Assembly: GCA_047967505.1 (NCBI GenBank)
Contig: CM106538.1
Source of the DNA: Dipteris shenzhenensis
Taxonomy: Eukaryota
DNA length: 64,000 bases
Direction: 5' to 3' (one strand)
The notes below the pieces were generated by a model. The model saw only the letters and a list, made by a program, of their open reading frames with translations. It was not told where the DNA came from and did no database searches. Positions 18,541 through 58,642 of this stretch are shown here, piece by piece. Numbering within the stretch: position 1 is the stretch's first letter; each line of letters starts with the position of its first letter. The translations under genes and the position numbers were made by a program.

Positions 18541-19646
18541 AGTGTCATCGGTGAGCAAGAAGCAACCCACAGTTGCTCTTTCTTCTACCGAGGCCGAGTA
18601 CAAATTTGCATGCTTTGCTTCTTGCGAGGTAGTGTGGTTGAGGAGGATTTTGGGTGACATGGGTGCAGTGCAGAACAAGCCTACGCAGTTATCATGTGGC
18701 AATCAGAGTTGCATGGCGATTGCAAAGAACCCAGTGTTCCATGCTCGCACAAAGCACATTGAGATTCAATATCACTTTGTACGCGAGCTCATCATGGATG
18801 GAGAGGTCAACTTGGTGTATTGTCCAACTACAGAGAATGCTGTAGACATCTTCACGAATGCTCTTGGAAGAGAATTGCTGGAGAGGCATCTTCATCAACT
18901 TGGCATTGCACCAAAAAAGTAAGTTCACTTGCGAGTGGACATTGAGGGGGGGTGTCAGATATCAATGCTTCACTCTCGTGTAACTACACAAGAACTAGCT
19001 AACTCTACTTATAAGCCCCCCATATGAAGAGAAGGCATTTGAGTAGCTCGGTTATCCGGTAGGTCCTAGTTTGGACACGAGATGGGGGCCATGTGTGGCC
19101 TGACGGCTGGACGGCTTCAGATAGAGTTGGCACACTGCCAACTAGGCTACATGCAAGTGCGGGAAGGCATCCCTTGACTGACCGCACTGAGGGTAGATAG
19201 AGCATTTTTGGGGCAGCCCACTCTCAAGTTGCGGGGCCCATTTGGAGCCTCAGATGATCCCGGATGGCTTTGGGCCGAGCGGAGATGATCCCGATTCTAT
19301 CATATGGTTGGTGGCCTGACCCTCAGTCGATTGTTTTGGTCGGACTGGGTCGGTCACCCAATTGAGCCTAACCGACTATGATTGGTGGCTATATAAGAGC
19401 AAGCCCATGAAGCCCATTTCATCACTGACTACAGCAACCCTGATTCCTTAGCATCTAGCCTTCCTGTTCTACTGTTTCTAGCACACCATCGAAGCTTCTT
19501 TCACAAGAGCGCACGATTGGGAGGCAGTGCCATCTATTGTACTAGTTCTACAGTAATCAAATTTTTGATTCTCCATACTATCTTGTTTTCTCCCTTGCGT
19601 ACGAGATCCTATTATCTGTTGAGCACAGACGTATTATTTTCTTACA
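18541..19646 (+). mobile_element. Copia family A 3' portion: RNase H, PPT 18944-18952, 3' LTR 18953-19646
   Basis: SKKQPTVALSSTEAEY...HARTKHIEIQYHFVRE; PPT gagggggggg; LTR TGTCAG...TTACA homologous to 2718-3446. Confidence 0.9.
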
Positions 19647-26028: not shown

Positions 26029-26620
26029 CACCTTTTTTTAGAAGCTTCCAAGTTTTGTAAGGCCTGTAATCTACATTCATACAAGGATTCTAGCTGTACC
26101 AAGCATTGAGCATAGGCATCCTCCTATCATTCCTTTCTTGCAAGAGTAGTGCAAACACTATGTATCTCCAACTCAATGGGCAAAATGGCTTCTATTCCAT
26201 ACACTAGTTGGAATGGTGTAAACCCAATAGCTAGCTTGTGTGTGGTTCTATAAGCCCATAAAACCTGTACCAAGTACCTATCCCAATGCCTTTTCTTGGT
26301 GTCTACAAACTTTCCCATTGAATTGCACAACAATCCATTTGTTTTCTTAGCCAAGCCATTACATTGGGGATAGTATCGCATGGACATGCTATGATTTATC
26401 TTTAGCTTATGCACCACATCTTCAATTAGTTCATTTCTAAAAGAGGTTCCTCCATCAGTGAGAATTTCCAAAGGACAACCAAAGTAGGACAACCAAAGTG
26501 TGAACAAATTTGATCAAAGAGAAATTTTGCAACTGTGCTTGCCTTGCTATTGGCTATGGCCTTGGCCTCTGCCTACCAAGTCACATAATCTATGGCCACC
26601 AGTAAATAATGCTTGCCTGA
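26029..26620 (-). pseudogene. Gypsy integrase core fragment, inverted relative to the flanking element
   Basis: FGCPLEILTDGG..YYPQCNGLA..LWAYRTT..TPFQLVYG; duplicate of 28721-29550. Confidence 0.85.
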
Positions 26621-29661: not shown

Positions 29662-32600
29662 AAGGATAGATTGGGGATTGTTTCATGTGTTGGTGGCATC
29701 TTGGTGTGAAGAAGAGTTGAGTCTTTGGGTAGTTTTTCACTATAACAATGGAGTGGTGATTCTCAATGCTTTCAACTTCTTTTGCTATGTAAATGATGAA
29801 GAGTACGATATGTTGAAGCTATTATGTGCACTTCCAATTATGACAAGGGTGATTCTTGAATGCATATATACACAATGTTTTCATGGTGCTGGTTGGTCAC
29901 TTATTTTTGAAGATTTTCTTGAGGATCACATTGTGGAGGGTTTTCAAGAAGTGATTATGCATAATAAGTTGGTCTTGGTATACTAAGGCTCTGTGGGATC
30001 TTGTTTGGGATATTATTTGGATCTTGGTGTTTCCTTTTTGTGTTTCATCATGGTGAAGATTCTAGTGTTTCGAGGGACCTAAGGGGAAGAACTGGAGTCT
30101 TATCTTCAGGATTTTAATTGAGAATGCCAGATTTTTGGATGGTCCATGAAGGATCAGGTAGAGATTTTGCCTAATTTTCTTGAAGGTGTAGCCTTGAGTT
30201 GGCATGAGGCCTTGCCGGACTCGACCAAGGAGGACTAGGACCAAGTGGTGGCTGTAATAAAGTAGAGATTTGAGACAGTGGAGTTGCCAAACGCTTTGAT
30301 GTTGTAGTTGGAACGGTTCTATCAACGAGAGGGTGAGATGGTCTCTACATTGGCAATCTGATATGAAACTTTATGGACAAAGTATGAAAGGGTAGCTTTG
30401 CAAGCGGCATTTGCATCATCGGCCCCTCAAAGTCTCGTAGGAATGGAGCACATAAAGATGAGCAAATTTTTTATCTCTTTGGAGCCTCGTCTTTGCTCAA
30501 AAGTAATGAGTAAATATCCAACAACATACGTGGAGGCACTTTGCATTGCGACCAAGAAAGAAGCTTCTCTAATGATCGAATCCTCTTTTGTGTCTTCGAC
30601 AACTTCAACTTCTAAGTTGGAGGTAATGGGCACTCCTCAAGTACCAAAGTCCTATGAGTTAGATCATAATATCTCCCAATTGATGGTAGAGTTTCCTGAT
30701 TTGAAATTGCATTTGATTAATGCACGACAACCTATAGCACTAAAGAGTGAAGATAGGCCTCGAGATAAGAGTGGGGTCACTTGCTATAAATGTAATGAAA
30801 AAGGTCACTATCACCCAAGTGTCCTAGATTGGAAAGAAAGAAGAAAAACAAGTATCCTTGTTAGAAGCTTCTTCAAGGGATGAGGAAAGAGAGGTAATGA
30901 TGCCTAAACGGGGGCGTGGTAAATCAAAAGAAGAAGAAGAAAGCAAGGAAGAAGTAGATGAGGAACATCGAAAAGAGAAACACCGTAGTAAGAAAAAGAA
31001 GGCATTTAGAAGGAGAATTATCTAGTCAGACTTTCCTTTAGGACAAGGCATTGGAAGCTATGAGGTTTTGTCCGACCTTAAAGAAAAGGAAGCTCATATC
31101 ACCTTTGGTTAATTACTTGCTTTGTCTCCAAAACTACGGAAGGAATGGGGAAATCTAGCAAGCACAAGAGAGTCAAAGAAGAAAAAGAAGAAAAGTGCCA
31201 TTTCTGTTGTTCAAAGGATAGATATAGATGTCGGTGATGATGTACCTATGGTTGATGTGATCATTGATGGTTAAGTGATTTCCAATGTGTACATTGATGG
31301 AGGTGCATCAATTAATGTCATGAGTGAGAAGACCATGATAGATGCTCATTTAAAATACTCTAGTACTACCTCTCCTTATCGCATCCAATTGGCTGACAAC
31401 ACTAGGGTAAAGACCTTGGGATTTGTGAAGAATCTAGAAGTGGATGTATGTGGAATTTTTGTGCTGACTACTTTTCAAGTGATCCCTACCAAGCCAGATG
31501 CATGTGCCTATTCATTGATTTTGGGAAGGCCTTGGCTACGCAAGGTGAAGGCTGTTCAAAAGTGGGACCCTAGAGAATTGATTTTGCAAGGAAATGATAA
31601 GAAGGTGCACTACAACATTAGAAGTTGCAAAAAGGAAGTTGTCAAGGAGTCGTCTTCAACATTAGAGAGTTTGAGCTCTGACTTAATCGATGAAGAAGAA
31701 GAGACAGGGTGTAGCTTTGACGAGTCTAGCTTAGAGGGTGAGGTGGAAGTCTTAGTGCTGATCGGGATGAGTCAAGAGGGAACAAGGTGGTGGTACAAGA
31801 AGATCCTATAGAGACACTTCATGTGGAGGATGTGGAGTGCACTAAACGACGCCAATGTAATGAAGAGCTTCTTGGTGATTCTCTATCAGGTAGTGAGAAG
31901 CTCTAGTACTTGGATATAATAGATGATTTCCCATATCTCTTTGCAACAAGCTATTCATAGGCTCGACCAGTCTCTCTTATGGAGCACAAGATTGAGTTGA
32001 AGCCAGAAAGCAAGCTAGTTGTGCAATGCTTAAGGCGATTGGGAGTGATCAAAGCTGAGGCACTAAAGAAAGAGGTAACACAACTACTTGAGGTGGGATT
32101 CATCTCTCCTCTTGATGATTCAAAATGGATATCTCCTATAGTTGTCACACCAAAGAAGGAAATAAGTGGTGGGTTTGTGTGGAATTTCATCCTTTGAATG
32201 CATGCATTAAGAGGGATCATTTTCCTTTGCCATTCCAAGAAAAAAATACTAGAACAGGTGGCAGGGCATGAGATGTATTCTGTATGTGATGGGTATTTTG
32301 GATACTTTCAAATTCGTATTCGGGAGGAAGATAAAAAGAAAACATCATTTGTCACACCTTAGGGAGTTTTTGCTTACAGAGTGATGCCTTTTGGGTTGAC
32401 CAATGCACCACCTACATTTCAAAGGTTTATGAGTTAAGTGCTCGAACCTTACTTGGGAAAGTTCATAAGGGTTTTTTTGAAAGATTTTTGCATTTATTCT
32501 CGATGCATAGATCACATGGAGAAGTTAAATATGGCCTTAGCTAGGATTGATGAAGCAAAAGGGTGTCTAAATCCTAGCACGTGTCATTTGGCTCAAACAA

Positions 32601-32716
32601 AAGTAGTTGACTGGGGCATATTGTGTCTGCAGAAGGCCTGCAAGTGGATCCTGACAAGGTTCAAGCAATCATGGCATTGCCAAGTCCTGAGAGTGTCACT
32701 AGTGTTCACAGAATTC
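29662..32716 (+). mobile_element. Second copy of the gypsy internal region (gag, protease, RT), truncated
   Basis: Colinear direct paralog of ~20950-23966; IDGGASIN at 31275, RT at 31979-32716. Confidence 0.88.
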
Positions 32717-33307
32717 GACAACATGAGCAGTATACACTTGGCAAATAACCCAGTCTATCATGCTAGAACAAAGCACATTGAGGTGCATTATTAATATGTA
32801 TGGGAGAAGGTTTTACTAGGTCTTATTGATCTAGTTTATGTCAACACAGAGGATCAGGTAGCTGACATATTCACGAAGGCATTGGGTGCAAGGAAGTTGC
32901 ACAAGTTCAGAGACTTGCCTGGAGTGTAGGAATTGTGATTGAGCTCGAGGGGGAGTGTTGAGATATCGAGCTCCACTCATGATATGCCAAGGTGACCATT
33001 GTGCATTTATGTCACCGACTTGTTAGCTCCAGATGCAGTTGGTACACCGCCCATGAATAATAGCTGGATGACAGCTATCCTTATATACTCTAGTTCGTGG
33101 CTTAGTTAATTTGCCACCTTAGTTAGTTGAGTTTGGTTTGAGACCCACATATAGGGTTCTTCTATTTCTTTGTACTAGAGTTCTTTTGGCTTACACAACT
33201 AAGAAGAGGAAAATTGTTTTCAGCCTCCACCTTTGTGTGAATTCCCCCATTGTGTATGTGAGAAAGCCACAAGTGAGACTCCTTCCTTCTCTCCCACTAT
33301 CTTCACA
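32717..33307 (+). mobile_element. Copia family B 3' end: RNase H C-terminus, PPT, 3' LTR 32956-33307
   Basis: DNMSSIHLANNPVYHARTKHIEVHY; PPT gagggggag; LTR TGTTGAG...TCACA. Confidence 0.92.
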
Positions 33308-36846: not shown

Positions 36847-39800
36847 TCTGAAAAACAGTTTTCCTCTTCTTAGTTGTGTAAGCCAAAAGAACTCAAGTAC
36901 AAAGAAATAGAAGAACCCTATATGTGGGTCTCAAACCAAACTCAACTAACTAAGGTGGCATACTAACTGAGCCATGAACTAGTGTAGATAAGGATAGCTC
37001 TCATCCAGCTATTATTCGTGGGCGGTGTACCAACCGCATCTCCAGCTAACAAGTCAGTGACATAAATGCACACAACAGTCACCCTGGCATATTGCGAGTG
37101 GAGCTCAATATCTCAACACTCCCCCTCGAGCTCAATCCCAAATCCTGCACACCAAGCAGGTCTCTGAACTTGCGCAGCTTCTCTGCACCCAATGCTTTCG
37201 TGAATATGTCAGCTACCTGATCCTCTGTGCTGACATAAACTAGATCAATAAGACCTAGTAAAACCTTCTCCCGCACATAGTGATAATGCACCTCAATGTG
37301 CTTTGTTCTAGCATGAAAGACTGGGTTCTTTGCCAAATGTATACTGCTCATGTTGTCACAATAAATGACAACCGGCCCATTTGTAGACTGATGCATATCA
37401 TAAAGTAGCTTATGCAACCAAGCTACCTCACATGCAGCCATTGCTGCACCCCTGTACTCAGCCTCTGTGCTCGACAAGGCAACTGTAGGCTGTTTCTTGC
37501 TGCTCCAAGTGACTGCAGCACTCCTAAAAGAGAACACATATCCACTCGTAGATCGTCTATCTAAAATGCTACCAGCCCAATCAGCATCAGTGTATCCATG
37601 CAACTGTATCTGAACCCCAGCCTCATAAAATATTCCATACTGCAATGTGGACTTCACATACCTGAGTATGCATCTAGCCGCATCCAAATGCGGTTTCCTT
37701 GGAGCCTGCATAAACTGACTTACCAACCCAACAGCATAGCTCAAATCTGGCTTGGTAATAGTCATGTAAATCAAACTTCCTACTATGCGTTTGTACATAG
37801 TAGGGTCCTCCAGAAGCTCACCTGCATCTGCGCTCAGCTTCACATTCTACTCCAAAGGAACTAAAATAGGCTTACAGCGTGTCATCCCATATTTGGACAG
37901 CATGTCCAATCCATACTGCCTCTGTAAGAGCTGTATCCCACTTGGTGATCTAATCACCTCAATGCTCAAGAAATAACGCAGCTCTCCCAAATCCTTCATC
38001 TCAAACTTCTGCCTCAATAGCATTTTCACATGAAGGATATCTTCATCACTATCACCTGTGATGATCAAATCATCAACATAAATGACCAGCAGCATAATCC
38101 CTTTCTCTGTTTCTCTCACATAGAGTGAGAAATCTGCCTTGGAAATCTAAAAGCCAATAGTGACAAGATACTGTCCTATCTTGTCAGACCATGCTCTAGG
38201 TGCTTGCTTCAAGCCATACAAGGCTTTCTTCAACCTGCAAACAAACTCGGGATGAATAGCATGAACATAACCTGCTGGCTGCTCCATAAAGACCTCTTCT
38301 TGCAAATCACCATGCAAGAAGGCATTCTTTACATCCATCTGATGTAAAGACCATCCCTTTGATGCAGCCATAGCAATGGCTACTCTTAGAGTTGCCATCC
38401 TTGCAACCGGGCTGAAAGTTTCTTCATAATCAATGCCATATGTCTGTGCATACCCCTTGACAACTAATCTTGCCTTGTATCTATTCACAGAACCATCTGC
38501 ATTGTGCTTGATCTTATAAACCCACTTACAACCAATTGCATTCTTGCCTTTAGGCAAAGGCACCAATTCCCATGTAGCATTAGCATCCAAGGCATCCATT
38601 TCTTCATCCATGGCTTTCTCCCATTTTTCATTTCCCATGGCTTGCTCAAAAGAAGTGGGTTCTGGTTCCTGTATCACTTTGACCATATAGGCATAGTGAA
38701 TGGCTGTAAATCCATCATATTTCAGCCTATCCATAGGATACCTAACCCTGGTAGACCTGTGCAAAATAGGCTCACTTCCAGGTGCTCTCAAAACATCCCT
38801 GGTCTTCCTTACTCCAGGTGTAACAACGGAAGGAATACCCAACTCATCATCAATGCTCTGTTTTGAGCCACTGGATTCACCATCCACACAAGAGTGACCT
38901 GCATTCACATCATACATGGGCTGATCTACCTTCTCTTTTCCTTTTCGTGATACCTGTGTACCACTCTCTGCATTGCTTTGAGGGGATTCTCCTGATCTCA
39001 ATCTCCCTGTCCATGGCGAAGTATGTGAACCACTGGTAGAGGACACTCCAGGTCCACTGATATTTTGTGATTGCTGCTGTGCATTCTGTGCAACATTACC
39101 ATTTTGTGCATCTACATCAATCATCACATTTACTGGTTTATACCAGCTGCTCATCTCATCAAAAACAACATCTCTGCTCACTGTGAACTTACGTGTAGAA
39201 GGGTTATAGCATCTATACCCTTTCTGCTGCAGTGAATAACCAATAAAGATGCACTTCTCACCTTTTGGAACCAACTTGGATCTCAACTCATCTGGCACAT
39301 GGACATAGGCAATGCAACCAAAAATCTTCAAATGAGAAATATCTGGTTTCCTACCAGTATACATCTCCTCTGGCGTCATGCCATGTATTGCTGTAGTGGG
39401 AGTCTTGTTTATTATATAGACTGCTGTAGCAACTGCTTCAGCCCAATAATAATCTGGTAGATCTTTTTCATTTAGCATAGCCCGAGATACCTCTCCAATA
39501 TGCTTGTTTTTTCTTTCTGCAATTCCATTTTGCTGTGGGGTATGACTGCATGAATATTGCTGCTTTATACCATGCTCCTGCAAGAACCTTGCAAACTCAT
39601 TTGAGAGGTACTCTCCCCCTCCATCTGACCTTAGGCATTTTATTTGCAGGCCTGTTTCTTTTTCCACCATAGCTTTGAAAGCTTTGAAGTGCCCAAACAC
39701 TTCACTTTTCTTTTTCATAAAATACACCCACAGTTTTCTGCTGAAGTCATCAATAAATGTGACAAAATAGTGATAGCCTCCAATAGATGCAGCTTTTGTA

Positions 39801-42274
39801 GTCCACACATCAGAGTGGATTAATTCCAATGGCTTTTTACTCTCTTGAACATGCCTAGGAAAAGGTTTCTTTGCCTGTTTCCCAAATTGACAGGCTTCAC
39901 AAACCTTGTGCATTTCTCCAACCTTGAATTTAGGCAATCCTGCAACAATATTTTGGGCTTGCATTGATTTAAGTCGCTGTATATTAACATGACCAATGTG
40001 TTTGTGCCAGATATCAATATTTGCAACTACATCGGTCCCATGTGCAAACATTGCTGCACTCAATTCAGGCATGTCCACATCCAACGTAAACATCCTGCCC
40101 TTCTTCTTTCCTTTTGCTATCAAGCGACCATTATTTTTCATATCCTCAACAAAGCATCCATGAGGATTAAATCTGACCTGCAAGCCCTGCTCAACCATCT
40201 GACCAATAGAAACCAGGTTCTTGGTGATGTTCGGGACATGAAATACATCAGTATTTTTGTTTCCCATCCTGCATAGACAAAGGAATTTTGTCAATCTGCA
40301 CAATAGGATGTGCAGTATCATCACCAGTCTCCACAAATCCTGGTTTTTCCATTTTCCTTGCATCTTGCATCCATTCTGCATGACCTATCATGTGGTTTGA
40401 TGCACCTGAGTCAACATACCACACATCATTTCATTCTTCTGCACTTGTCACAGAATTGGTCATATGCTGCACCATAAATAGATGCTCATTTCTGTCATCA
40501 CCCTGCCTACTAGAAGATGCATAATTGCCTTGCTGCAATTTTCCACTCATAATGTCATTCTGCTTTTTATAGCAGTCCTTAGCCATATGACCCATTTTGC
40601 CACAATAGTAGCATTCAACATTGCTGTTTGCATTTTGGCCTCTCTGCCATCCACCACGGCCTCTTTGGCTCCCCCTGCCTCTAGAGTTACCACGTCCTCC
40701 TGCATAGGACTGGTTTTCTTGCGTTTGCTGCATATTCTGATTTCGACCATGGCCTGCAGATCGGCCTCCTCTACCTCTGCCTCTACCTCTGCCAGCATTT
40801 GAGTAGAAGACAGTTTCTTTTGAAGTTCCTGCTGAAGAAGATGCACCCCCATTTCTCTGCTCTTCAGAAATTAGAAGAGCAATCAACTCCTCAAAATCTG
40901 GAAATTTTTCACGGACGGCAATGGATGTCCGGAATTGTGCATAATCCTTTCCTAGACCATTCAAGGTCACAGAAAGCAAATCGTCATCATCCACTGGCGA
41001 CCCAATGGAAGCAAGTGCATCTGCAATTTTCTTCACTTTCATGTGGTAGTCATTTATGCTCAAATTTTCTCTCTGCACATTGTGCAACTCCTGTTTTAGT
41101 TGCATTTTCTTGGCTTGCGTATTTGTGCTATACATTTTTGCCAAAGTATCCCATGCCTCCTTTGGCGTATTTGCATCCTGAATATGCACAATCATGGAGT
41201 CCGAAATACTGATAGACAGCCAGTACATAACTTTCCTGGCTCTCTCATGCCATCCTTTGAATGCCTGCATTTCCCGTTGACTGGGAACATTAGGAAGAAC
41301 AGGTTCTTCTTCATTTCCTGTAATGAACTCCCAATAGCCTTTTCCCATCAAGAAATTCGTCATTCTAAACTTCCATGCCTGGAAGTTGTTCTTGTCAAGC
41401 TTTTCAGTGACAATCTGTGAAAGAGAATCAGATGCCATTACAGAACACTGCAAAATATTCTGTCACTACAAAAAACACAGCTTTTTGCCTCACATGGGCA
41501 GATCTACAAAACTCACGAAAGTGGTATTTCACCACACAGTCACTTCCTAGTGACGATTTTGCATCAACAGGCAACAAGCATGAATCTGCAACTCCCAATA
41601 TCTCTGCACAAAGGCATACGATGCAATTTCTGCGGCAACTTTTCACCGACCCGCAGAATAGTGGTCATACAGCAAAAACAGGGCCTTTTTCTGAGTGCCT
41701 GCGGAGAACTTCCGTCTCCAAAACGGGCCCCGAAATGACCTCGCCACACCGCGAAGGGCATCTCAATCTGAGACAGTGCACTCTTGCACTTCTGGCTGTG
41801 CTACCTGCAGAGATTTGCTCCCAAACTCGAAATAGGAAAGCAACACTGGTCCTCTTACCAGGACACCATGAACTTGGCTTGCTTTCTTGAGCTCCTTACC
41901 ACGAACAAGGCTCTCATACCATGTGAAGATAGTGGGAGAGAGGGAAGGAGTCTCACTTGAGGCTTTCTCACAATCACAATGGGGGAATACACACAAAGGT
42001 GGAGGCTGAAAAACAGTTTTCCTCTTCTTAGTTGTGTAAGCCAAAAGAACTCAAGTACAAAGAAATAGAAGAACCCTATATGTGGGTCTCAAACCAAACT
42101 CAACTAACTAAGGTGGCATACTAACTGAGCCACGAACTAGTGTAGATAAGGATAGCTGTCATCCAGCTATTATTCGTGGGCGGTGTACCAACCGCATCTC
42201 CAGCTAACAAGTCGGTGACATAAATGCACAACAGTCACCCTGGCATATCGCGAGTGGAGCTCGATATCTCAACA
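36847..42274 (-). mobile_element. Near full-length copia family B element with TSD GTATT; 5' LTR 41922-42274, shortened 3' LTR 36847-37118
   Basis: GTATT at 36842-36846 and 42275-42279; PBS 41910-41921; PPT from 37119; gag-PR-INT-RT-RH order. Confidence 0.96.
37079..41453 (-). pseudogene. Copia B gag-pol polyprotein broken by a few stops and frameshifts (ORFs 40431-41453, 38147-40381, 37847-38119, 37079-37843)
   Basis: Gag with RGG tract and CCHC knuckle; integrase [32 protein letters not shown]; RNase H YTDADWAG..TEAEY. Confidence 0.95.
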
Positions 42275-45200: not shown

Positions 45201-45906
45201 AAAGGCAATCACGGAGATGCAAAAACAGATTAAAATTGCAATTCCTTACATTACAAAAATCTTCCAATCAAATATGGGGAAAGAAGGGGAGAGAAATTGG
45301 GGAGGAAGGCAAGAATTGAAGGCACGGTAAGAGAATTCTTGCATTATGCCCTACCTACAATCTCTACCACCATCGCGAGTTGCTGCAACTGCAAATGATG
45401 ATGATGATGATTCTTCTTCTTCTTCTTCTTTTTTAGCAAAAAAGAAACATAGATACATCAAGCAACAGAGAGAGATGAAGCACGTGGCCATGGCATTGTA
45501 GATGATGCGAATTCAAATTGAAGGTGTAGGAGAAAGAGATCGAGGAGGCCATGAAAGCTTCAAAAGAGGAATAGATGGAGATCATTAGAAGATCGAAAGA
45601 TTTGAAAGCTAGAAGGGTATGAAGATAATAAGACAACGACTAAAGAAGAAGGATCAAGACGGTTTGACCGCTCCAAAATCAATTAAAATTTTTTGAATTG
45701 AAAAATGACGTTTTTATAAGCATTTTTTAATAATAGTTCATACATGAATTATTTTGTGTATTGAAAAAAGGTAGTAATGCTTTGAAAATGAAAAAAATTG
45801 AGTAATATATGTTATGAATTAAGAGTCCTTCAAGAGTATGATTTAACTATAGTTTGAAATAGGAAGTCCTTTACATGTATTGAAAATGGGCTTCTACTTA
45901 AATATA

Positions 45907-47189
45907 CTAGATTATGTCTCTATTTTTGAGAAAGTAAAATTTTTTTGTAGATGTTGGATTTCCACTAAGGTTATTGTAGCCATATTTTGAGCCAATTGTG
46001 TTGAGTTCTCTTATGTATTTCTCTTCAAGTGTATCTGCTTTGCTTTTAAAGTTTGTGGTGGCTAGGATTTCTATTTTGAAGTTCGAGTGGAACGCTTTAT
46101 ACCTATTAACATCATGTTTCAATTTTAATAGAGGATTGGTTTGGTGATGTGCTATCCATTTTTCAAGATTTCTAGTTTTTCCAATATATCTTTTTTTTGT
46201 AGCAATACATAGAATAGAATATATGTAATATGGGCCTTTTGTGCCTTTTTCTTTGTCTTCTTTGTGATTTCCTATTTGAAATAGCAAAATGAAGTACGAT
46301 GAGACTTTCTTGTGTTTTAGAAGATGAAGTTTGTATGTATTTTAAGATATGGAGTCAAGAATGTACCTGTAGGGGGCTTAAATATATTGTTCTTTGGTGG
46401 AGTCGAGAAAAACTCAAAATGTTCGCCATATGCTTCTTTTGCAAAATTTAAATCAGTAATGGAAGTTATACCTTCTATGATAAATGGCAACTCTTTTGCT
46501 TTTTTTTTATCATTTGTTTGCAACATGTTGTTGAACTCCGCTAGTATGACATTTCCAGTCTTATGATCTATTTTGAGGAGTTCGACTAAGCTTACATTGT
46601 AGCCAAAGTGTAGAAGTTCAAGGAAATAAGTTGAAGTTTCTTCTGAGTGCTTATCTATTATAGCTTGTGCTTCTATTCTCAACATCATTGGAGTAATGAT
46701 ATCATCCTCTTTTGTGATTTTTTGAATTATGTACTTAGACCTACATTATGTTTGAATTGATATTATGTATATGTTATTTATTGTATTTTTAAGATTTAAA
46801 ATTTAATCATTTTTTATAAATAAAATTGGGTTACTAACCATTTGCTCTCATTTCTTTGTCCCCATGTTCTGCCTTCCATTGTTGTACTTCATGTTGATTG
46901 TTATCCATGAAATTCCTGAGGTCTTGCAATGTGCTCCATCCATAAATGTATTCATTTGGTTCCTTTCCAGCCATGTTTGCGAAATGCATTTGAGCTGTAT
47001 ACAAGAAATAATTTTTTCCTTTGATCTTTTTGTTGATTTCTCTTGATCTTGTTGAGGCAATCGGGCTTTACTTTTGAATTGATTAAAGATCTGCAAAAAT
47101 AGTAATCCATTATAAATTATAATATAAACTAATGTGAAGAAATACTACAATGCTTAATATTGAAAACATACCTCATCTGATGTTGCCAT
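45907..47189 (-). pseudogene. Predicted 4-exon gene (47189-47172, 47090-46839, 46740-46367, 46271-45907) ending in a GIY-YIG endonuclease domain; exon 2 frame disrupted
   Basis: YIYSILC..KRYIGKTRNLEKW..H..LEEKYIRELNT..YGYN. Three GT-AG introns of 81, 98 and 95 nt; the exon 3/4 junction is in phase (PPT-G-NHK). Confidence 0.75.
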
Positions 47190-47327
47190 ATTTTATTATT
47201 GGTTGTTCTTCAAATAATTTTTTTTGATAGATTCTGCATATTAGTTTGTATATCAAAAGTTTCTTTTCTCTTATATTGATGAATATTTAATAAAAGGATT
47301 TTTTATTGATTACTATTTTTTTAAATT

Positions 47328-48671
47328 TCATGTAAGCATTGGAATGAAGTCAGATGGATTGATTTTATTTAAGATTCTTAAGTTGTTTCGAGTGGTGACT
47401 CGTGAAAGCATGACATATGTTAGTCCTGGTGTAAATGATTTTTGTATTACTACAAGAGCCTTTCCTTTGCAAGTGCATCCTTGTGACTTGTGTCCCGTAA
47501 TTGCATATGCTAGTGTGATTAGAAATGTTGTTTTGTGATACCATATTGAGTTTAATAACTTCTGTTTATGTTTTGATTGTCTTAGTGTGATTTTTTCATT
47601 TGTTGATAAGATCTTGGCATGAATTTTTAAAATGTTGTTTGTGTTATTATCTATTTCTAGTGATATGACACTTGCAATAGCACCATTTGTAGCTCCGATT
47701 GTGAGATCTATATTTTCAGTGAAAGTGATCATCATTTTCACTCCTATTGCTATTTGTTGTATGGAGTGGAAATCTGGATCCATTATCCATTCTTTTAATT
47801 CTAAGATTTGATCTGCATTGGATGTCACAGTGACACTTTTAATTTGATGCTCTTTGAATTTCTTAGGTAGTATGAGCTGATTATAGTATCATGTGTCTTT
47901 TTTATGGGTGCACAATATAGTTGTGTCCTTGTCAATGAAATCGTTTGCTTCACTATCACTTATTATTAAATTACCTAGGTAATACTGAATCTCTTCTACT
48001 GTTGGTTGTCTTATTCTGATTATGTTTAAGAATTCTATGTATATTGGATCTTCTAGGTGATGTATTGATGTGTGTAGGAATGAAAAGGTTGCAGTTGTCC
48101 AGAAACCTGAGTTTCCAATATAGCATTTTCTACAAAATTCATTTTCTTGCACCTTGCATTTACATACAAGAGGCAACTGGGACATATCTCTAAATAAGAG
48201 CATCTTTTTATTTTCAAAAGGCTGCAAGATTGTTTGGTTGCAAGTTTCACACAGTTGTCTGATTACTGTGTTTAATGTTTGGCATGTCATCATTGAGATC
48301 TCATCAATTATGATGATTTCTGCATTTTCCAATTCTATGTATTGTTCTTCTAGCACTGGTAAGGAGGCACAAAACATATCGTGTCTCTTTGGTAGAGCAA
48401 ATTGATGATGTACAATAGTTGCTAATCGACTTAGTCTCATTGCAACTGCTCCTATTGTTGCTACTAGAACAATTAATTTTCCTTGTTTTACATAATTATA
48501 AGTAATGTACTTGATCATAAATGTCTTTCCTAAACCAGGAGTACCACAAATGACATGAAGTCCTATGGGTGATCCATTAATCTTTTCGTAAATTTCTTGT
48601 TGTTCAGAAGAAAGAGTTGCATTTTCGAAATCCTTGCATTGCCGTTCATCATTTGAAGTAATTTTGTGCAT
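47328..48671 (-). pseudogene. PIF1-family SF1B helicase domain of RepHel
   Basis: GTPGLGKT, VATIGAVA, IIIDEISMM, LFRDMSQLPLV, LAYAITGHKSQG, GLTYVMLSRV; one break at ~47889. Confidence 0.92.
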
Positions 48672-49396
48672 GTTGTGTTATGTATATTGGTATCTTCATG
48701 AAGGTCAGTTGAAGCCATGAAGGAGCTCTAAATAACATGTAATGGGCTTTTTTGGAGTATCATGTTTGTTAGTTGGTGGCGATTTTGATCTATTAGCAAG
48801 TGCACTTTGCAATATTGATTGATAACAGATTCGATGTCTTCTTCTGTTTTTATGAGGTCTCGGATATGGCATTCTAAAAAGTAAGATTTCGTATGATTGT
48901 TTTTAGAAATGAGCTCATTCTCATTTCTAAAATTTATGTTCTTTAGTAGAAGGTTATAAAAAAAGATGAGTAGGGTGGTAATCTGTGAAACGTACAATCT
49001 GTGTTGATGGATATACATAATTTCCGAAAGAATCTACGATAGTAATGTTATCTTTGTTTTTTTTCTTTGACTTTTAGACATTGTATTTTCTCTAGAATTC
49101 ATAGAAAGTCAAGTTCTCCATGACACTTGGATGACCGCAATACGTATCTATAGGATGCAGTACAGAAACACAATGTTCATGAAGGTATTTTTGGTGCATA
49201 GATGGGGGAGAGGAGTCAATGAAATGCACAGATTCGCTTCTTTGAATGGTAGATATTTGTAAGCATGACAATGCTGCCTCTGTTGGAGATGTTGTCTTTG
49301 AAAGAATGTATGCAAATATCATTTTTAATTCAATTGGATCTAGATTATCTAGTCCTACAAGTTTTACATCACCAGGATTCAAGTTCATGTGTCTCA
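48672..49396 (-). pseudogene. RepHel linker region downstream of the Rep tyrosine motif
   Basis: ORF 49092-49397 continues the Rep frame across the copia TSD (..KIEPMRHMNLNP..SPTEAA..). Confidence 0.75.
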
Positions 49397-52300
49397 TGTG
49401 AAGATAGTGGGAGAGAAGGAAGGAGTATCACTTGTGGCTTTCTCACATACACAATGGGGGAATACACACAAAGGTGGAGGCTGAAAATAGTTTTCCTCTT
49501 CTTAGTTGTGAAAGCCAAAAGAACTCTAGTACAAAGAAATATAAGAACCCTATATGTGGGTCTCAAACCAAACTCAGCTAACTAAGATGGCATACTAACT
49601 GAGCCACGAACTAGAGTGCATAAGCATAGCTGTCATCCAGCTATTATTCATGGGCGGTGTACCAACCGCATATGCAGCTAACAAGTCGGTGACATAAATG
49701 CACAACGGTCACCCTGGCATATCACGACTAGAGCTCGATATCTCAGCACTCCCCCTCGAGCTCAATCCCAATTCTTGCACACCAACAAGTAGGTCTCTAA
49801 ACTTGCGCAGCTTCTCTGCGCCCAATGCCTTCATGAATATGTCAGCTACCTGATCCTCTATGATGACATAAACTAGATTAATAAGACCTAGTAAAACCTT
49901 CTCCCACACATAGTGATAATGCACCTCAATGTGCTTTGTTCTAGCATGATAGACTGGGTTATTTGCCAAGTGTATACTGCTCATGTTGTCACAATAAATG
50001 ACAACTGGCCTATCTGTAGACTGATGCATATCATAAAGTAGCTTATGCAACCAAGCTACCCCACATGCAGCCATTGCTGCACCCCTGTACTCAGCCTCTG
50101 TCTCGACAAGGCAACTGTAGGCTATTTCTTGCTGCTCCAAGTGACTGCAGCACTCCCAAAAGAGAACACATATCCACTAGTAGATCGTCTATCAGAAATA
50201 CTACCAGCCCAATCAGCATCAATGTATCCATGCAACTATATCTGAACCCCAGTCTCATTAAATAGTCCGTAGTGCAATGTGGACTTCACATATCTAAGTA
50301 TGCGTCTAGCCGCATCCAAATGCGGTTTCCTTGGAGCCTGCATAAACTGACTTACCAATCCAACAGCATAGCTTAAATCTCACCTGGTAATATTCATATA
50401 AATCAAACTTCCTACTATGCGTTTGTACATAGTAGGGTCTTCCAGAAGCTCACTGCATCTGCGCTCAGCTTCACATTCTGCTCCAAAGGAACTGAAATAG
50501 GCTTACAGCCTCTCATCCCATATTTGGATAGCATATCCAATCCATACTGCCTCTGCAAGAGCCGTATCCCACTTGGTGATCTAATCACCTCAATGCCCAA
50601 GAAATAACGTAGCTCTCCCAAATCCTTATTCTCAAACTTCTGCTTCAATAGCATTTTCACATGAAGGATATCTTCATCACTATCACCTGTGATGATCAAA
50701 TCATCAACATCAATGATAAGCAGCATAATACCTTTCTCTGTTTTTCTCATGTAAAGTGAGAAATCTGCCTTTTGAAATGTGAAAGCCAATAGTGACAAGA
50801 TACTATCCTATCTTGTCAGACTATGCTCTAGGTGCTTGCTTCAAGCCATACAAGGCTTTCTTCAACCTGCAAACAAACTCAGGATGAACAGCGTGAACAT
50901 AACCTGGTGGCTGCTCCATAAAGACCTCTTCTTGCAAATCACCATGCAAGAAGGCATTCTTTACATCCATCTAATGTAAAGACCATCCCCTTGATGTAGC
51001 CATAGCAATTACTGCTCTTACGGTTTCCATCCTTGCAGCTGAATTGAATGTTTCTTTATAATCAATGCCAAATGTCTACGCATACGCCTTGACAACTAAT
51101 CTTGCCTTGTATCTGTTCATAGAACCATCTGCATTGTGCTTCACCTTAGAAACCCACTTACAGCCAATTTCATTCTTGTCTTTAGGCAAAGGCACCAATT
51201 CCCATGTAGCATTGGCTTCCAAGGCTTCCATTTCTTCATCCATGTCTTTCTCCCATTTTTCTTTTCCCATGGCTTGCTAAAAAAAGAAGTGGGTTCTGGT
51301 TCATGTATCACTTTGACCATATAGGCATAGTGAATAGCTATAAATCCATCATATTTCAGCTTATCCACAAGATACCTAGCTCTGGTAGACCTATGCAAAA
51401 TAGGCTCACTTCTATGTGTTCTCAAAACATCCCTGGTCTTCCTTACTCCAGGTGTAACAACAGAAGGAATACCCAACTCATGATCAATGCTCTGTTCTGA
51501 GCCACTGGATTCACCATCCACATAAGAGTGACCTACATTCACATCAAACATGGGCTGATCTACCTTCTCTTTTCCTTTTCATGATACCTGCATACCACTA
51601 TCTGCATTGCTTTGAGGAGATTCTCCTGATCTCAATCTACCTATCCATGGTGAAGTATGTGAACCACTGCTAGAGGACACTGCAGGTCCACTAATATTTT
51701 GTGATTGCTGCTGTGAATTCTATGCAGTATTACCATTTTGTGCATCTACATCATCAATCACATTTACATATTTATACCAGCTGCTCATCTCATCAACAAC
51801 AACATCTCTACTCATTGTAAACTTATGAGTAGAAGGGTTATAGCATCTATACCCTTTCTGCTGTAGAGAATAACCAATAAAGATGCACTTCTCAGCTTTC
51901 TAATCCAACTTGGACCTCAACTCATCTAGCACATGAACATAGGCAATGCGACCAAAAATCTGGTTTTCTACCAGTATACATCTCCTTTGGTGTCATGCCA
52001 TGTATTGCTACAGTGGGAGTTCTATTCATTGTGTAAACTGCTATAGCAACTGCTTCAGCCCAATAATAATCTGGTAGGTCTTTTTCATTTAGCATGGCCC
52101 GAGATACCTCTCTAATATGCTCGTTTTTCCTTTCTGCAAGTCCATTTTGCTGTAGGATATGACTGCATGAATATTGCTGCTTTATGCCATGCTCCTACAA
52201 GAACCTTGCAAACTCATTTGAGAGGTACTCTTCCCCTCCATCTGACCTTAGGCATTTTCTTTGCAGGCTTGTTTCTTTTTCAACCATAGCTTTAAAAGCT

Positions 52301-54763
52301 TTGAAATGCCCAAACACTTCAATTTTCCTTTTCATAAAGACACCCAAACTTTTCTGCTGTAATCATTAATAAAAGTGACAAACTAATGACAGCCTCCAAT
52401 AGATGCAGCTTTAGTAGTCCACAATTCAGAGTGGATTAATTCCAATGGCTTCTTACTCTCTTGAACATGTTTAGGAAATGGTTTCCTTGCCTGTTTTCCA
52501 AATTGACAGGCTTCACATACCTTATGCATTTCCGCAACCTTGAATTTAGGCAATCTTGCAATAATATTTTGGGCCTACATTCATTTAAGTTGTTGTACAT
52601 TAACTTAACCAATATGTTTATGCCAGATATCAATATCTGTAACTACACCGGTCCCATGTGCAAACATTGCTGCACTCAATTCAGGCATGTCCGCATCCAA
52701 TGTAAACATCTTGCCCTTCTTCTTTCCTTTTGCTATCAAGCGACCGTTATTTTTCATATCCTCAACAAAGCATCCATGAGGATTAAATCCTCGATTAAAT
52801 CTGACCTGCAAGCCCTGCTCAACCATTTGACCAACAAAAACCAGGTTCTTGGTGATATTTGGGACATGAAATACATCAGACAGGTATTTCTTTTTCCCAT
52901 CCTGCATAGACAAAGGAATTTTACCAATCTGCACAATAGGATGTGTAGTCTCATCACCAATCTCCACAAATCCTGGTCTTTCCATTTTCCTTGCATCTTG
53001 CATCCATTCTAGATGGCCTGTCATGTGGTTTGACACACCTGAGTCAGCATACCACACATCATTGCTTTCTTCTACACTTGTCACAGAATTGGTCATGTGC
53101 TGCATCATAAATAGATGCTCATTTCTGTCATCACCCTGTCTACTAGAAGATGCATAATTCCCTTGCTGCAATTTTCCATTCATGATGTCATTCTGCTTTT
53201 TATAGCAGTCTTTAGCCATATTACCCATTTTACCATAGTAGTAATATTCAACATTATTGTTTGCATTTTGGCCTCTCTGCCATCCACCATGACCTCTTTA
53301 GCTCCCCCTGCCTCTAGAGTTATCAGGTCCTCCTCCACCATAGGACTGGTTTTCTTGAGTTTGCTGCATATTCTAATTTCTAACACGGCCTCCAGATCGG
53401 CCTGCTCTACCTCTTCTAGCATTTGAATAGAAGACAGTTTCTTTTGAAGTTCCTCCAGAAGAAGCTGCACCACCATTTCTCTACTGTTCAGAAATTAGAA
53501 GAGCAAACAACTTCTATAAATCAAGAAATTTTTCATGGACGGCAATGGATGTATGGAACTGTGCATAATCCTTTCCTAGACCATTCAAAGTCACAAAAAC
53601 TAAATCATCATCTTCCACTGGTGACCCAATGGAAGCAAGTACATCTTCACCTTCATGTGGTAGTCATTGATGCTCATATTTTCTCTCTGCACATTGTGCA
53701 ACTCCTGCTTGAGCTGCATTTTCCTAGCTTGCATATTTGTGCTATACATTTTTGCCAAAGTATCCCATGCCTCCTTTGGCGTACTTGCATCCTGAATATG
53801 CACAATCGTAGAATCTGAAATACTGATAGACAGCCAGTACATAACTTTCCTGGCTCTCTTATGCCATCCTTTAAATGCTTGCATTTCCTCTTGATTGGGA
53901 ACATTAGGAAGAACTGGTTCTTCTTCATTTCCTGTAATGAACTCCCAATAGCCTTTTCCCATAAGGAAATTTGTCATTCTAAACTTCCATGCTTGGAAGT
54001 TGTTCTTGTCAAGCTTTTCAATGACAATCTGTGAAAGAGAATCAGACGCCATTACAGAACACTACAAAATATTTTGTCACTACAAAAAACATAGCTTCTG
54101 CCTCACAAGGGCAAATCTACAAAACTGACAAAAGTGGTATTTGACCACACAGTCACTTCCTAGTGATGATTTTGCATGAACGGGCAATAAGGATGATTCT
54201 GTAACTCCCAATATCTCTATGCATAGGCATATGATGCAATTTCTGTGGCAACTTTTCACCGACCTGCAAAGTAGTGGTTGTACAGCAAAAAAAAGGCCTT
54301 TTTCTCATTACTTGGGGAGAACTTTTGCCTCTAAAACGGGCCCCAAAATGGCCTCAAACTAGAAAAATGAAGTCACCCTTGCCACACCGCGAAGGGCATC
54401 TCAATCTGAGACAATGCACTCTTACACTTTTCAGCTGTGCTACCTGCAGAGATTTGCTCCCAAACTCGAAAAAGGAAAGCAACACTGGTCCTCTTACCAG
54501 GACACCGCAAACTTGGTTTGCTTTCTTGAGCTCCTTACCATGAACGAGGCTCCAATACCATGTGAAGAGAGTGGGAGATAAGGAAGGAGTCTGACTTGTG
54601 GCTTTCTCACATACACAATGGGGGAATACACACAAAGGTGGAGGCTGAAAATAGTTTTCCTCTTCTTAGCTGTGAAAGCTAAAAGAACTCTACTAACAAG
54701 TCGATGACATAAATGCACAACGGTCACTTTGGCATATCACAAGTGGAGCTCGATATCTCAACA
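49397..54763 (-). mobile_element. Full-length decayed copia family B element with TSD TCTCA; 3' LTR 49397-49748, 5' LTR 54561-54763 (~150-bp internal deletion)
   Basis: TCTCA at 49392-49396 and 54764-54768; degenerate PBS 54549-54560; PPT from 49749; colinear with 36847-42274 but with many more disabling mutations. Confidence 0.96.
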
Positions 54764-56600
54764 TCTCATGGGTTCTATTTTCATAGCATATTCTAGAAGG
54801 TAATATGATAGGCCTGTGTTTGTTATTTATACATGCTTGCCACAAGAGTAATATTCCTGCATGGTATGGAATGACATTGCGATGTTCTAGTGATGGACGG
54901 AAGTAGATCCATCTTTGTGTGAGAGGATCTATAGTAGGTTTAGTATCTAAATGTATTGGATATGGAAATCTATATTTGCATTTGTGGTTTGTGCTTGAAT
55001 CAAATAGACTGCATGTTGGCCTACATGTGTGGATTTGTTTTCTCTTTCCCATATAGTTAAGCTTTCTTTGAATTGAATTCTCTGGCGAGTCGTTAAAATC
55101 ATTCATGTAAGGGATATGTGCATCTATCTGGTTTGATACAATATCTATGTCTTGTTCATCTATCCATAGCATCATGTGTGCATGCATAAATCCTCGATTT
55201 TGTACCTCATATCTTATGATGTGATGGTTGACTCTACCTAGTAGTCCTTTATCGCATAGAATATATGTTGCTAAGAATTGTTGTAGTCTAACATGGAAGA
55301 GCACTGCACATGCAACTGGACAATCTCTCCATGTGAAGTTTTTATTGAATTGTTTAGCAATGGTTTCTATTTGATCGATTTCACACCATCTCGTGGTTGA
55401 TACCTCATCTGCAGTAAGTGTAAGGAATATGTTGGGAAGGTGCCATGTGTCAACCATTGCCATTAGATCTTTAAGTTTCTACGGTGCCATGAAGGAGATC
55501 CAGGAATAGGACTTGGTATCTAAAACTTAAGAATACATCTAATTATCTCTTGTTCAGATATTCTTGGATCTTGTCGTCTTTGTTGGTCAATATCTCTTTG
55601 TAATACTGTAGTTTGAGTAGAGTTTGCTATTAAAATAGATTGACATTTGTACCAATAACAAGTATGGTTTGTAAAGAGTGAACACGGAGAACAATGTTGA
55701 TATTCTCATTTTTAAATATACATTGAAGAACATCTTGCCATCATGAGCACCATATCCAAAAGGATAGAGGAATGGGAATAATGCATACTCTAGTGTTAAT
55801 TCGTCACATTGTGACAGACCTTCCATAGATGTTATGAGCTGATGCTCAATAATTCTTGTTGAACCACGAAGTACAATTGTCCCGACTTCATGTGATGTAT
55901 TTTTTTTGAATTGATGAGTTGTAGGTAGCATGTTGATTTGTTCTAGTAATGACAAGTAGTTGTCCTCATGTGCAATTTTCATAAGATCGAATGGTGAGTC
56001 AGTAGAGTGTCTTTCAAGAATATCATAAATAACTTCTGAAGAAAGAACACTTACTCCTAGTTTTGGATGCAATCGTTCATACATTGTCAATTATTTTTTA
56101 AATATGGGGTTTGTTCTAGAGTTGAACGCTAGAACGTGTTTTGTTGTTGATAGTAAGTTTGTTGAGTTACTACAGAATCTTTGTTGGCAATTCCAACATA
56201 TTAGTGGATTATCCAACATTGATCTCCTTTGTAGTATACCTATTGCTAAAGATGTAATACCTTTAAAAACGTTTAGGGATATATCGAATATAGAAAGCAT
56301 TTGCATTTGAAATATGTTTGCACCTAATACATTTTGTAAATAGTTTGGATTATAGTAAACCGAGTACAACTTTTTGAATGGACTATCTATGGATGCTTTA
56401 CAAGCCATTTTTTATCTATGTACCAGGCCATTTTCTACATGCAAACTTATGAACGTATTGGATAAGTCATATGGTGTTATACTTGATTCTAGTAGTGATA
56501 TTACTGATTTTAACTTTGTAAAAGAACCTGTGTTAAATTCTATTCTACCACAATATACACAATATTGCATTTTTGAAATATATTGAGAAGTGGTTCCATT
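54764..56600 (-). pseudogene. Helitron Rep (HUH/Y2) domain and N-terminal region
   Basis: GSPSWH..DLMAMV..PNIFLTLTADE (motif 1), RYEVQNRGFMHAHMMLW (HUH motif 2), CKYRFP, GLSYYLLEYAMK (motif 3); upstream EYALFPFLYPFGYG; frameshifted. Confidence 0.9.
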
Positions 56601-56889
56601 CTTTTAGAAATTTATTGATGAATAGCCATGAGGAGAAACTCGGTTGTGATCGTCTTTTCTTGTTTTCTATGCTAATGTAGGAAGCACGTTCTCTCCTTTC
56701 AATAAGAGACCTTTTTATATTTGTAAAATAAATTATATGTTGAAGTAGAAGCACCTACTTTATTTTCCCATTGTGGATGAGAGCATTAAAATGACTTGAA
56801 ATTCACCAATTCGAATAATCTGCAAACAAAATATCAAGGTTGTTAACACTTTATATTTTTCACTCAAAATTTATAACGTCTCTAGTTTA

Positions 56890-57510
56890 TGTTGATACCA
56901 ATTTGAATATAGCATTTGAATATAGCATATAGGAATTGGAATGTAGCATATACCGACACTCTAATAGCATTTCGAATATAGAACATGGTAAATAGCTCTT
57001 TCTTTTTGCACATAGGAGTTTGTGTTTAGCATATATTTTGTAGCTATTTGAATTTGGGATATAGCAGTTTTCATTTATCACTTTGTGTATATTTGGTGGC
57101 AATTTGAATTTGAGATAGAGGACTCTGAATTTTTTACATAGCGTTTTTCATTTAGAATTAGCACATACCATTGAGCAACTAGCATTTTTGCATTTAGCAC
57201 ATAGCACTTTTTATCCAACACATAAACAAATAAACTTAACCACACATTCATGTGTGGGGAGAGTTGGCACATTTCCTCTCCAAAAATTATAAGACCAAGG
57301 AACGTGCCTTTCCTTGGGTTCATATCATTTTGTATTTTGCACTTAGTGTTTTGCATATAGCAAGAATTATTTGAGTTTGGGATATAGAACATAGCACTTT
57401 GCATTTTGCACATGGTACTCTACTTTTAGGAATGTATGATTTTGTATTTTGCACACAGTATTTTGTATATAGCATGTAGCAATTTGAGTTTGGGATATAG
57501 AACTTTGCAT
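56890..57510. repeat. AT-rich degenerate repeats upstream of RepHel
   Basis: tttga(a/g)tttg(g/a)gatatag recurs at ~57047, ~57102, ~57370 and ~57483, with many atagca motifs. Confidence 0.6.
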
Positions 57511-57989
57511 TTAGTATATAGTAATTTTCATTGAGGTATTACTTTTAAATTTGCTAACACACCATATCAACATCTTGGGTGGTTCTTGTTCTAGGTATAT
57601 GTGTAGCGAGCTATATGGTGTGTTGACTTTGTATGGTTTCAAGCTTGTAGAAGAGGGGCTAGGAATGAGGGGGGGCTTTCCCACACCTAGGTTAGATGCA
57701 CACCATAAGAGTGAGCTTGTGAGGAATGATGGCTTCTGTCTTCTTGAAAGCTTGTATGATGAGATCCATTGGGTGAGGGATACGAAATCAGATTTGGGCA
57801 AGTATGGAGGAATTGTGAGTGGGGTCCAAGGTTGCAAAGAAGGTGCTTAAGGAGCTACAGACTAGAAAACCTTGTCATATACATATATTGGATGGGTACC
57901 ATCAGATTGGCTTTGCAAGGAATTATGATTGGTATCCTGAAAGCTTGAATGAGGAAATCCTTGTTTAGTTCTTAGAGTGAGCATGTGCA

Positions 57990-58642
57990 TCAGGAGCATG
58001 GATACTGGATAACAGATTTCTGAGTAACCTTCTTGTTGAAAGGTATGGAAAATGTGAAAAGCTAGAGTATGCACAAGCTGTTTTTAACAAAATACTCGTG
58101 GAGTATTTTGATGTGGTGGTGGTGACAACTCTTGTCAATATGTATGTTAAGTGCAGCAGCATGGATGATTCAAGGGATGTGTTTGCATAGATGCCACTTT
58201 GGAATGCAACCTCTTGGAATGCCATGATTACAATGTGTCTACACGATTCAATGGTTTTTTTTGCAAAGGTTGCACTATAGGATGCGATCTTGTGGAATGC
58301 TGCCCTAATCACAACTTGTCTCTAGGAAGTGCACAACGAGGAGGCTTTACAACTATTTGGTCAAATGCAAGGTGAAAGCATTGACCATAACAAGGTCATT
58401 TTCATTTGCATTTTGGATGTGTGCACCAAAGAAAAAGCCTTGGAAGATTGGGGCGCTTACATGCTAATTTTGTTGGCTCTGAATTGGAATCTGATGTTGT
58501 TGTGGGGATAGCCCTTGTCAATATGTATGGCAAATGTGGGAGTCTAGATGATTCTAGATCTGTGTTTGCAGTGATGCCTGTGTGAAATGTGGTCTCATGG
58601 AATACCATAATTTCAACATTTGCTCAAAACGGGTTCAACAAG
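57990..58642 (+). pseudogene. PLS-class pentatricopeptide-repeat pseudogene fragment
   Basis: DVVVVTTLVNMYVKCSSMDDSRDVF*MP..SWNAMI; EEALQLFGQMQ..VIFICILDVC; DVVVGIALVNMYGKCGSLDDSRSVF..*NVVSWNTII..AQNG..KEALQLF; stops and frameshifts. Confidence 0.88.

Follow-up and report, generated by a model that had tools for sequence, protein, structure and literature searches.

A 64,000-nt window of the Dipteris shenzhenensis genome (GenBank assembly GCA_047967505.1, contig CM106538.1) holds what is, by its sequence, one old copy, now inactivated, of an autonomous rolling-circle transposon of the Helitron-like kind from a land plant, in which a Rep/helicase (RepHel) pseudogene is followed by a separate, spliced gene for a GIY-YIG nuclease resembling I-TevI. 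The copy is dead: it cannot act because its RepHel is broken and the catalytic arginine of its GIY-YIG domain is replaced by a tryptophan. The pairing of RepHel with GIY-YIG is not new. It has been published, once and briefly, for HelenSM92, an HLE2 family of the moss Sphagnum magellanicum in which a GIY-YIG domain is described as "captured and transposed" with RepHel (PMC11417382), and this answers the doubt expressed in an initial annotation of the window as to whether the architecture had been described before. We put the chances that the GIY-YIG protein is an accessory nuclease encoded by the element at about even.

Results

Positions are those of the whole stretch, and all features of the element are on the minus strand. 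An AT-rich block (~45680-57540) encloses them, with a GC content of 0.25-0.36 against ~0.40-0.46 in the flanks; the GC profile and the common strand bear out the initial annotation, which had placed the element on a single strand within a single AT-rich block. A Pfam scan of 12 reading frames of the window detected three domains in this block, in the order Helitron_like_N (54693-55478, E 3.1e-19), PIF1 (47889-48677, E 2.2e-16) and GIY-YIG (45907-46341, E 1.7e-9), that is, all three for which searches with profile hidden Markov models had been proposed. The RepHel pseudogene is split by a nested retrotransposon into a Rep part (54769..56399) and a part carrying the rest of Rep plus the PIF1-like helicase (47328..49396). 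Its closest relative found was P0151, a protein of 1532 residues from the green alga Edaphochlamys debaryana (E 1.2e-28, 40% identity, 118 bits), the only one returned from 217 candidates by a word-index search that was queried with the 261-residue Rep frame and covered longer proteins only. The HUH motif HAHMM (55184-55170), which falls inside the Pfam Helitron_like_N match, aligns with LHAHILLW of P0151 and with HAHILL of Helraiser (7lcc), and the two-tyrosine (Y2) motif YYLLEYAMK (54805-54779) aligns with SYYVLKYAMKTEP of P0151 (YYVLKYAMK). The Walker A sequence GTPGLGKT (48545-48522) and the sequence IIDEISMM (48311-48288) also align with P0151, and the alignment therefore covers all four motifs expected of a RepHel (HUH, Y2, Walker A, Walker B).

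When P0151 was compared by tblastn with the window from which the retrotransposon had been excised in silico, its residues 182-1478 aligned in four collinear pieces (56399-55008, 54826-49095, 48964-48740 and 48632-47334). Residues 182-676 matched the Rep part with 29% identity (E 1e-49) and residues 683-1478 matched the 3' part in three pieces lying in differing frames, so that the PIF1 helicase is collinear with Rep up to residue 1478. The helicase frame is closed by a TGA at 47330-47328, exactly where the initial annotation had it end. Two in-frame stops (TAA at 56093-56091 and TGA at 47891-47889) lie within ungapped homology, a stretch with multiple stops is present at ~55590-55480, the HUH and Y2 motifs sit in different reading frames, and the frame shifts between pieces, although part of these shifts could be introns. 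The Rep with HUH and Y2 motifs proposed previously is thus upheld as to its motifs by the P0151 alignment and by Pfam, but not as an intact gene, in view of the stops and frame changes; these alignments make clear that it was a Helitron-type Rep/helicase, and that the gene is broken.

The interrupting element is a Copia-type long terminal repeat (LTR) retrotransposon (49397..54763) that is nested in Rep and is not part of the Helitron. Besides Gag, integrase and reverse transcriptase frames, it displayed LTRs at 54763-54561 and 49748-49397, a primer-binding-site-like sequence (TGGTATTGGAGCC) after the 5' LTR and a target duplication of 5 bp (plus-strand TCTCA; 49392-49396 and 54764-54768). The interval 49397-54768, which the initial annotation had suggested removing, corresponds exactly to this element plus one TCTCA copy. 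The insertion point is just past the Y2 motif, and after excision the in-frame homology to P0151 ran continuously over the junction (piece 54826-49095). Aligned over 203 columns, the two LTRs agree in 190 (93.6%) and differ in addition by a 149-bp indel, the extra segment being present only in the 3' LTR. Since the identity outside this segment is only 93.6%, the Copia insertion is old and the Helitron older still.

Downstream of the helicase, the last exon of the second gene (45907..46271, ending with TAG at 45909-45907) encodes the GIY-YIG domain (PF01541, 38.2 bits against a curated cut-off of 22.6). The GIY-YIG motifs reported previously for this exon are present (IYSI, 46224-46213; YIGKT, 46188-46174; EEKYI; and GYNN). 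A 95-nt GT..AG intron of phase 1 (46272..46366; GT 46366-46365, AG 46273-46272; donor ACAG/GTACAT, acceptor AAATAG/GA) joins it in frame to the penultimate exon (46367..46745), a stop-free frame of 142 codons that is open from 46745 and has its first ATG at 46688. None of 2000 simulations of 1.6 kb at 28.6% GC produced a pair of stop-free frames with 142 or more codons each. The initial annotation had drawn a four-exon gene, and its last intron stands on this evidence. In contrast, exons 1 and 2, proposed in what we describe as a spacer (46746..47327), find no such support: the lengths of their frames (98 and 77 codons) are such as chance would give (mean longest frame in the simulations, 76 codons), exon 1 spliced onto exon 2 reads into a stop, and the phase 1 donor of exon 2 does not fit the phase 2 acceptor of exon 3, which puts the junction out of frame. 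The ATG predicted ~140 bp past the helicase stop does exist (47189-47187), within a spacer whose coding status is unsupported. Neither the exon 1 and 2 frames nor the 142-codon frame gave a Pfam match or detectable similarity to the N-termini of longer GIY-YIG relatives, and the N-terminal exons had no significant match among 151 proteins by phmmer or blastp (best E 0.18); a resemblance to P0105 noticed by eye was rejected by the same comparison. A single-sequence AlphaFold2 model of the penultimate exon was unusable (mean predicted local distance difference test score, pLDDT, 39.9). The gene thus has at least two exons, with a well-supported last splice junction, the only one to join long frames correctly; its start lies ~640 bp or less from the helicase stop, on the strand of RepHel.

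The sequence comparisons identify the GIY-YIG frame as a member of a real nuclease family and not as a chance reading frame. HMMER, run exhaustively on 1.84 billion cluster representatives, brought up 216 relatives with E<=1e-3, of which 16 reached E<=1e-10 (the best having E 3.4e-22 and 48% identity); nearly all of them are short, nameless proteins. When 30 sequences were aligned, at least 90% of them had kept each of the columns Tyr, Tyr, Arg, His, Glu and Asn, with a near-invariant Gly and Gly-Tyr-Asn, even though the aligned relatives were only 24-47% identical to the window domain. The same alignment disclosed a family-specific insert (consensus PPxRMxxDVxxYxPF) and a tail (GYNxLxGxP); a permissive regular expression for the insert picked out 72 of the 150 relatives listed, a figure that is only rough. 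Against solved structures, the family profile best matched the I-TevI catalytic domain (1mk0, E 1.6e-9; 1ln0, E 4.7e-9), the matches to UPF0213, endonuclease II and the plant host-type SLX1 (E 0.045-0.47 for the latter) being far weaker. An alignment-based AlphaFold2 model of the domain reached a pLDDT of 92.1, and Foldseek placed I-TevI at the top (TM score 0.75, root-mean-square deviation 2.7 A), ahead of UvrC and SLX1. The catalytic Glu (in EEKYI) and Asn (in GYNN) are present in the window copy, and a TGG (Trp) codon stands at the catalytic Arg position (46158-46156), where all of the 29 other aligned sequences have Arg. The family Arg and Glu columns align with residues that are Ala in 1ln0 and 1mk0, the Arg column with that in 1ln0; we take these positions to be the catalytic R27 and E75 of I-TevI, E75A being named in the fold-match record. 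A single-protein scan of 185,579 prokaryotic species genomes gave no close relative of the domain, and an Atlas search returned only generic GIY-YIG clusters, mostly of phage.

Some relatives of the domain (P0103, 680 aa; P0038, 408 aa; P0105; P0109; and P0052) carry long N-terminal extensions in which Pfam recognised no domain and which did not detectably resemble one another or the penultimate exon of the window. Since these extensions are mutually dissimilar, the nuclease domain seems to have been combined with varied N-termini. An OTU-like region suspected by eye in P0103 received no support from Pfam.

As to the lineage of the element, the evidence makes it rather likely that its RepHel has Helitron2/HLE2 affinity. 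P0151, the sole RepHel relative obtained from the word-index search, is chlorophyte, no plant RepHel having been returned, and Chlamydomonas Helitrons are described as Helitron2 (PMC3627910, PMC9977147). Helraiser, an HLE1 transposase, scored only 20.5 bits against the window Rep, compared with 118 bits for P0151, and the nearest Helitron_like_N clusters of the Atlas were animal and not plant. DUF6570, which has been proposed as an HLE2 marker (PMC11417382), was absent at E<=10 from eight window frames and at E<=0.01 from P0151. This absence counts against an HLE2 assignment, if weakly, because the N-terminal region of RepHel is degraded. No APE domain (Exo_endo_phos) was matched by Pfam in the 12 frames, the helicase frame closing at 47328, nor did an RPA domain come to light.

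On the 5' side, Rep is preceded by an AT-rich leader (56604..57540, minus strand, GC 0.28-0.35) that may or may not belong to the element. Directly 5' of Rep it holds (56900-57540) degenerate, satellite-like repeats of three families (D1-D3, units of ~13-56 nt) that may belong to the element, as do the internal repeats of some Helentrons, or to the sequence of the insertion site. On the 3' side an AT-rich tail (45680..45906, minus strand) continues at GC 0.245-0.28 down to ~45680. Two candidates for the ends were rejected: 395 of 500 simulations gave inverted matches as long as the 10-bp one between 56752-56743 and 45899-45890, and a CTAG overlapping the GIY-YIG stop is not preceded by the GC-rich hairpin of a 3' end.

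The flanks contain Copia and Ty3-type elements and pentatricopeptide repeat (PPR)-like repeats. One Copia family has at least three members in the window, at 16111-19000 (plus strand), 37082-41462 (minus strand) and 49397-54763 (minus strand, the copy nested in the Helitron), which are almost the same in their gag N-termini and in the frames derived from their LTRs. Of the named relatives of the neighbouring Copia polyprotein, the closest came from the fern Adiantum nelumboides (55-59% identity), the angiosperm matches listed being 38-47% identical. Taken by itself, this comparison points to a land plant as host and tentatively to a fern or some other non-flowering lineage, though probably not to a moss. 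P0174 (WP_139158356.1), recorded under the name of an integrase from Enterobacter cloacae complex sp. GF14B, was 70% identical over half the query length to the Copia polyprotein at 38150-40384 (minus strand); given its gag and integrase domains of Copia type, this record probably stems from plant sequence that entered the assembly of a bacterium. Ty3/gypsy-type fragments were found at 26130-26513 and 29115-29504 (minus strand) and at 23286-24761 and 31275-32791 (plus strand). They include two near-identical integrase frames ~3 kb apart with reverse transcriptase/RNase H and protease pieces nearby, which suggests nested or duplicated retroelements. Finally, the region at 57980-58620 (plus strand) carries PPR-like units (VNMYVKCSS..., VNMYGKCGS...) with one weak Pfam PPR match below the cut-off (E 2.2e-4), and a 125-bp direct repeat of 74% identity whose copies (58109-58233 and 58492-58616) are 383 bp apart; it is probably a decayed PLS-type PPR gene adjoining the element.

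Discussion

It is well established for Helitrons that RepHel nicks and unwinds DNA, and the first gene of the element, with its HUH two-tyrosine Rep and PIF1-type helicase, would have nicked, unwound and rejoined one DNA strand. The second gene, separate and spliced, would have contributed a protein with an I-TevI-like GIY-YIG domain at its C-terminus and an N-terminal part of ~120 residues without a known fold. Such a protein would open the target for the element, as is thought for the APE endonuclease in animal Helentrons; alternatively, it would cut empty sites and thereby promote copying, as TnpB does for IS605.

Several results weigh against a role of the GIY-YIG protein as an accessory nuclease of the element. 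The window copy belongs to the fold, but as a nuclease it is probably inactive, given the Trp in a column that is Arg in all 29 relatives. Neither a second copy nor an empty site of the element was found within the window. The ends are not apparent either: four terminal windows folded no better than their shuffles (z from -0.95 to +0.07), and among all perfect inverted matches of at least 9 bp between the element ends the best was of 10 bp. No protein joining both functions was encountered, since none of the 150 GIY-YIG relatives listed exceeded 680 residues, the 17 scanned with Pfam had no Rep or helicase domain alongside GIY-YIG, and the P0151 polypeptide has no GIY-YIG domain according to Pfam; a word-index search for longer, fused GIY-YIG relatives scored none of its 89 candidates. 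Moreover, the authors of the HELIANO work (NAR 2024) treat the moss GIY-YIG as a capture and report 20 recurrent captured domains, mostly of unknown use, among which GIY-YIG is not named in the accessible part of the main text (PMC11417382).

A gene carried as cargo, that is, captured by the element and lying inside it without contributing to transposition, would agree with several of these points. Helitron-like elements capture genes often, the wording used for the moss family is that of a capture (PMC11417382), the nearest RepHel relative does without GIY-YIG, and the gene is a separate downstream unit instead of being fused to RepHel like the APE of Helentrons. The domain, however, is unlike the solved plant host GIY-YIG of SLX1 and like I-TevI, a nuclease of selfish elements, and its relatives, diverse as they are, have kept the catalytic columns; if the moss domain is homologous, the pairing also recurs in two distant plant lineages. 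We thus regard mere cargo as a somewhat unlikely explanation, yet one to be taken seriously. It is less probable still that the gene is simply a neighbour of the Helitron, be it a free-standing selfish nuclease, a transposon fragment or a host gene. Such a reading gains from the lack of termini found to enclose both genes, from relatives that are mostly short, stand-alone proteins, and from the window being a dense mosaic of transposons, because of which adjacency alone is weak evidence. Against it, the GIY-YIG gene matches RepHel in strand, in its low GC and in the A-richness of its coding strand, the AT-rich block runs ~230 bp beyond the GIY-YIG stop, the spacing is short, no other transposon protein domain was found on either strand at 45680-47328, and the pairing has been published. 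From strand, spacing, composition and this precedent we infer that the GIY-YIG gene lies inside the termini of the element. Of the two-gene Helitron-like family put forward in the initial annotation, a RepHel followed, on its own strand, by a distinct GIY-YIG gene can thus be retained, whereas for a family the window offers a single copy.

That the GIY-YIG frame is the remnant of a Penelope-like element, or of an intron homing endonuclease that reached the nucleus from an organelle, appears very improbable. GIY-YIG is the endonuclease of Penelope-like elements, which exist in some plants (PMC9033089), the fold is nearest to that of an intron homing endonuclease, and the DNA is AT-rich. In Penelope-like elements, however, GIY-YIG is C-terminal to the reverse transcriptase; no reverse transcriptase adjoins the window domain, whose upstream exon has no Pfam match and whose next gene is a helicase. 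The window protein showed neither NUMOD nor another DNA-binding module of homing endonucleases, its intron is of the nuclear GT-AG type, and no close relative appeared in the prokaryotic genomes scanned. A full-text literature search combining Helitron or Helentron with GIY-YIG found only the HELIANO work as a link between both; elsewhere in the literature so retrieved, GIY-YIG is associated with Penelope-like elements, Terminons or a Mariner element and not with Helitrons.

The reading of the GIY-YIG protein as an accessory nuclease can be extended to the idea that the gene is no one-off capture but belongs to a conserved, diversified I-TevI-like family. That family would regularly supply the second gene in a Helitron2/HLE2 clade of the green lineage (including HelenSM92, the element of the window plant and possibly algal ones) and would have an APE- or TnpB-like role there. 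This broader proposal is tentative and, in our opinion, has perhaps one chance in a few of being right; if true, the combination of an HUH transposase with a separate small nuclease would have recurred in organisms ranging from bacteria to plants. Target choice and target opening by Helitron-like elements are still poorly understood, and the accessory nucleases of non-canonical ones (APE and the algal Fanzor) are the main clue. HLE2 elements have been reported in 13 species belonging to six of the eight land-plant classes sampled (PMC11417382), and a second land-plant lineage with GIY-YIG beside RepHel would suggest that the moss case was no accident of capture. The family, with ~110 residues, a high-confidence model and clear catalytic columns, is tractable for studies in vitro and of transposition. 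A lesson for annotation is that a GIY-YIG frame standing alone in AT-rich plant DNA can point to a Helitron-like element instead of a Penelope or organelle insert. The window copy itself is dead, and its value is as a record of the architecture and as a lead to a possibly recurrent I-TevI-like partner of green-lineage Helitron2 elements.

Among known systems, HelenSM92 is alike in being a land-plant Helitron-like element with GIY-YIG besides RepHel (PMC11417382). Its terminal inverted repeats, which are short, and its TT insertion sites could not be shown for the window element. The likeness is one of published description, and the GIY-YIG domains of the two may or may not be homologous and in a like position relative to RepHel. 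Canonical plant Helitrons (HLE1) share the layout of a RepHel core with a separate downstream accessory gene, but theirs are RPA-like genes, of which none was detected here, and the Rep described here is distant from Helraiser. With I-TevI, the intron homing endonuclease of phage T4, the family has in common the corresponding Tyr, Tyr, Arg, Glu and Asn columns. The window protein differs in having no I-TevI-type linker, zinc finger or helix-turn-helix module (nor NUMOD, according to Pfam), in bearing the catalytic domain at the C-terminus and not at the N-terminus, and in being the product of a nuclear, intron-bearing gene with a family-specific insert and tail. Animal Helentrons are likewise non-canonical rolling-circle elements with a second nuclease added downstream of the helicase, although there it is a C-terminal APE fused to RepHel, while in the window a GIY-YIG fold is encoded by a separate spliced gene. 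The Chlamydomonas Helitron2 elements with Fanzor1 (Bao and Jurka 2013, PMC3627910) provide a further parallel, as green-lineage Helitron2 elements with an extra nuclease gene, and the closest RepHel relative of the window comes from an alga related to Chlamydomonas. Their TnpB-like Fanzor1 is an RNA-guided, RuvC-type nuclease unrelated to GIY-YIG and the carriers described are non-autonomous (PMC3627910).

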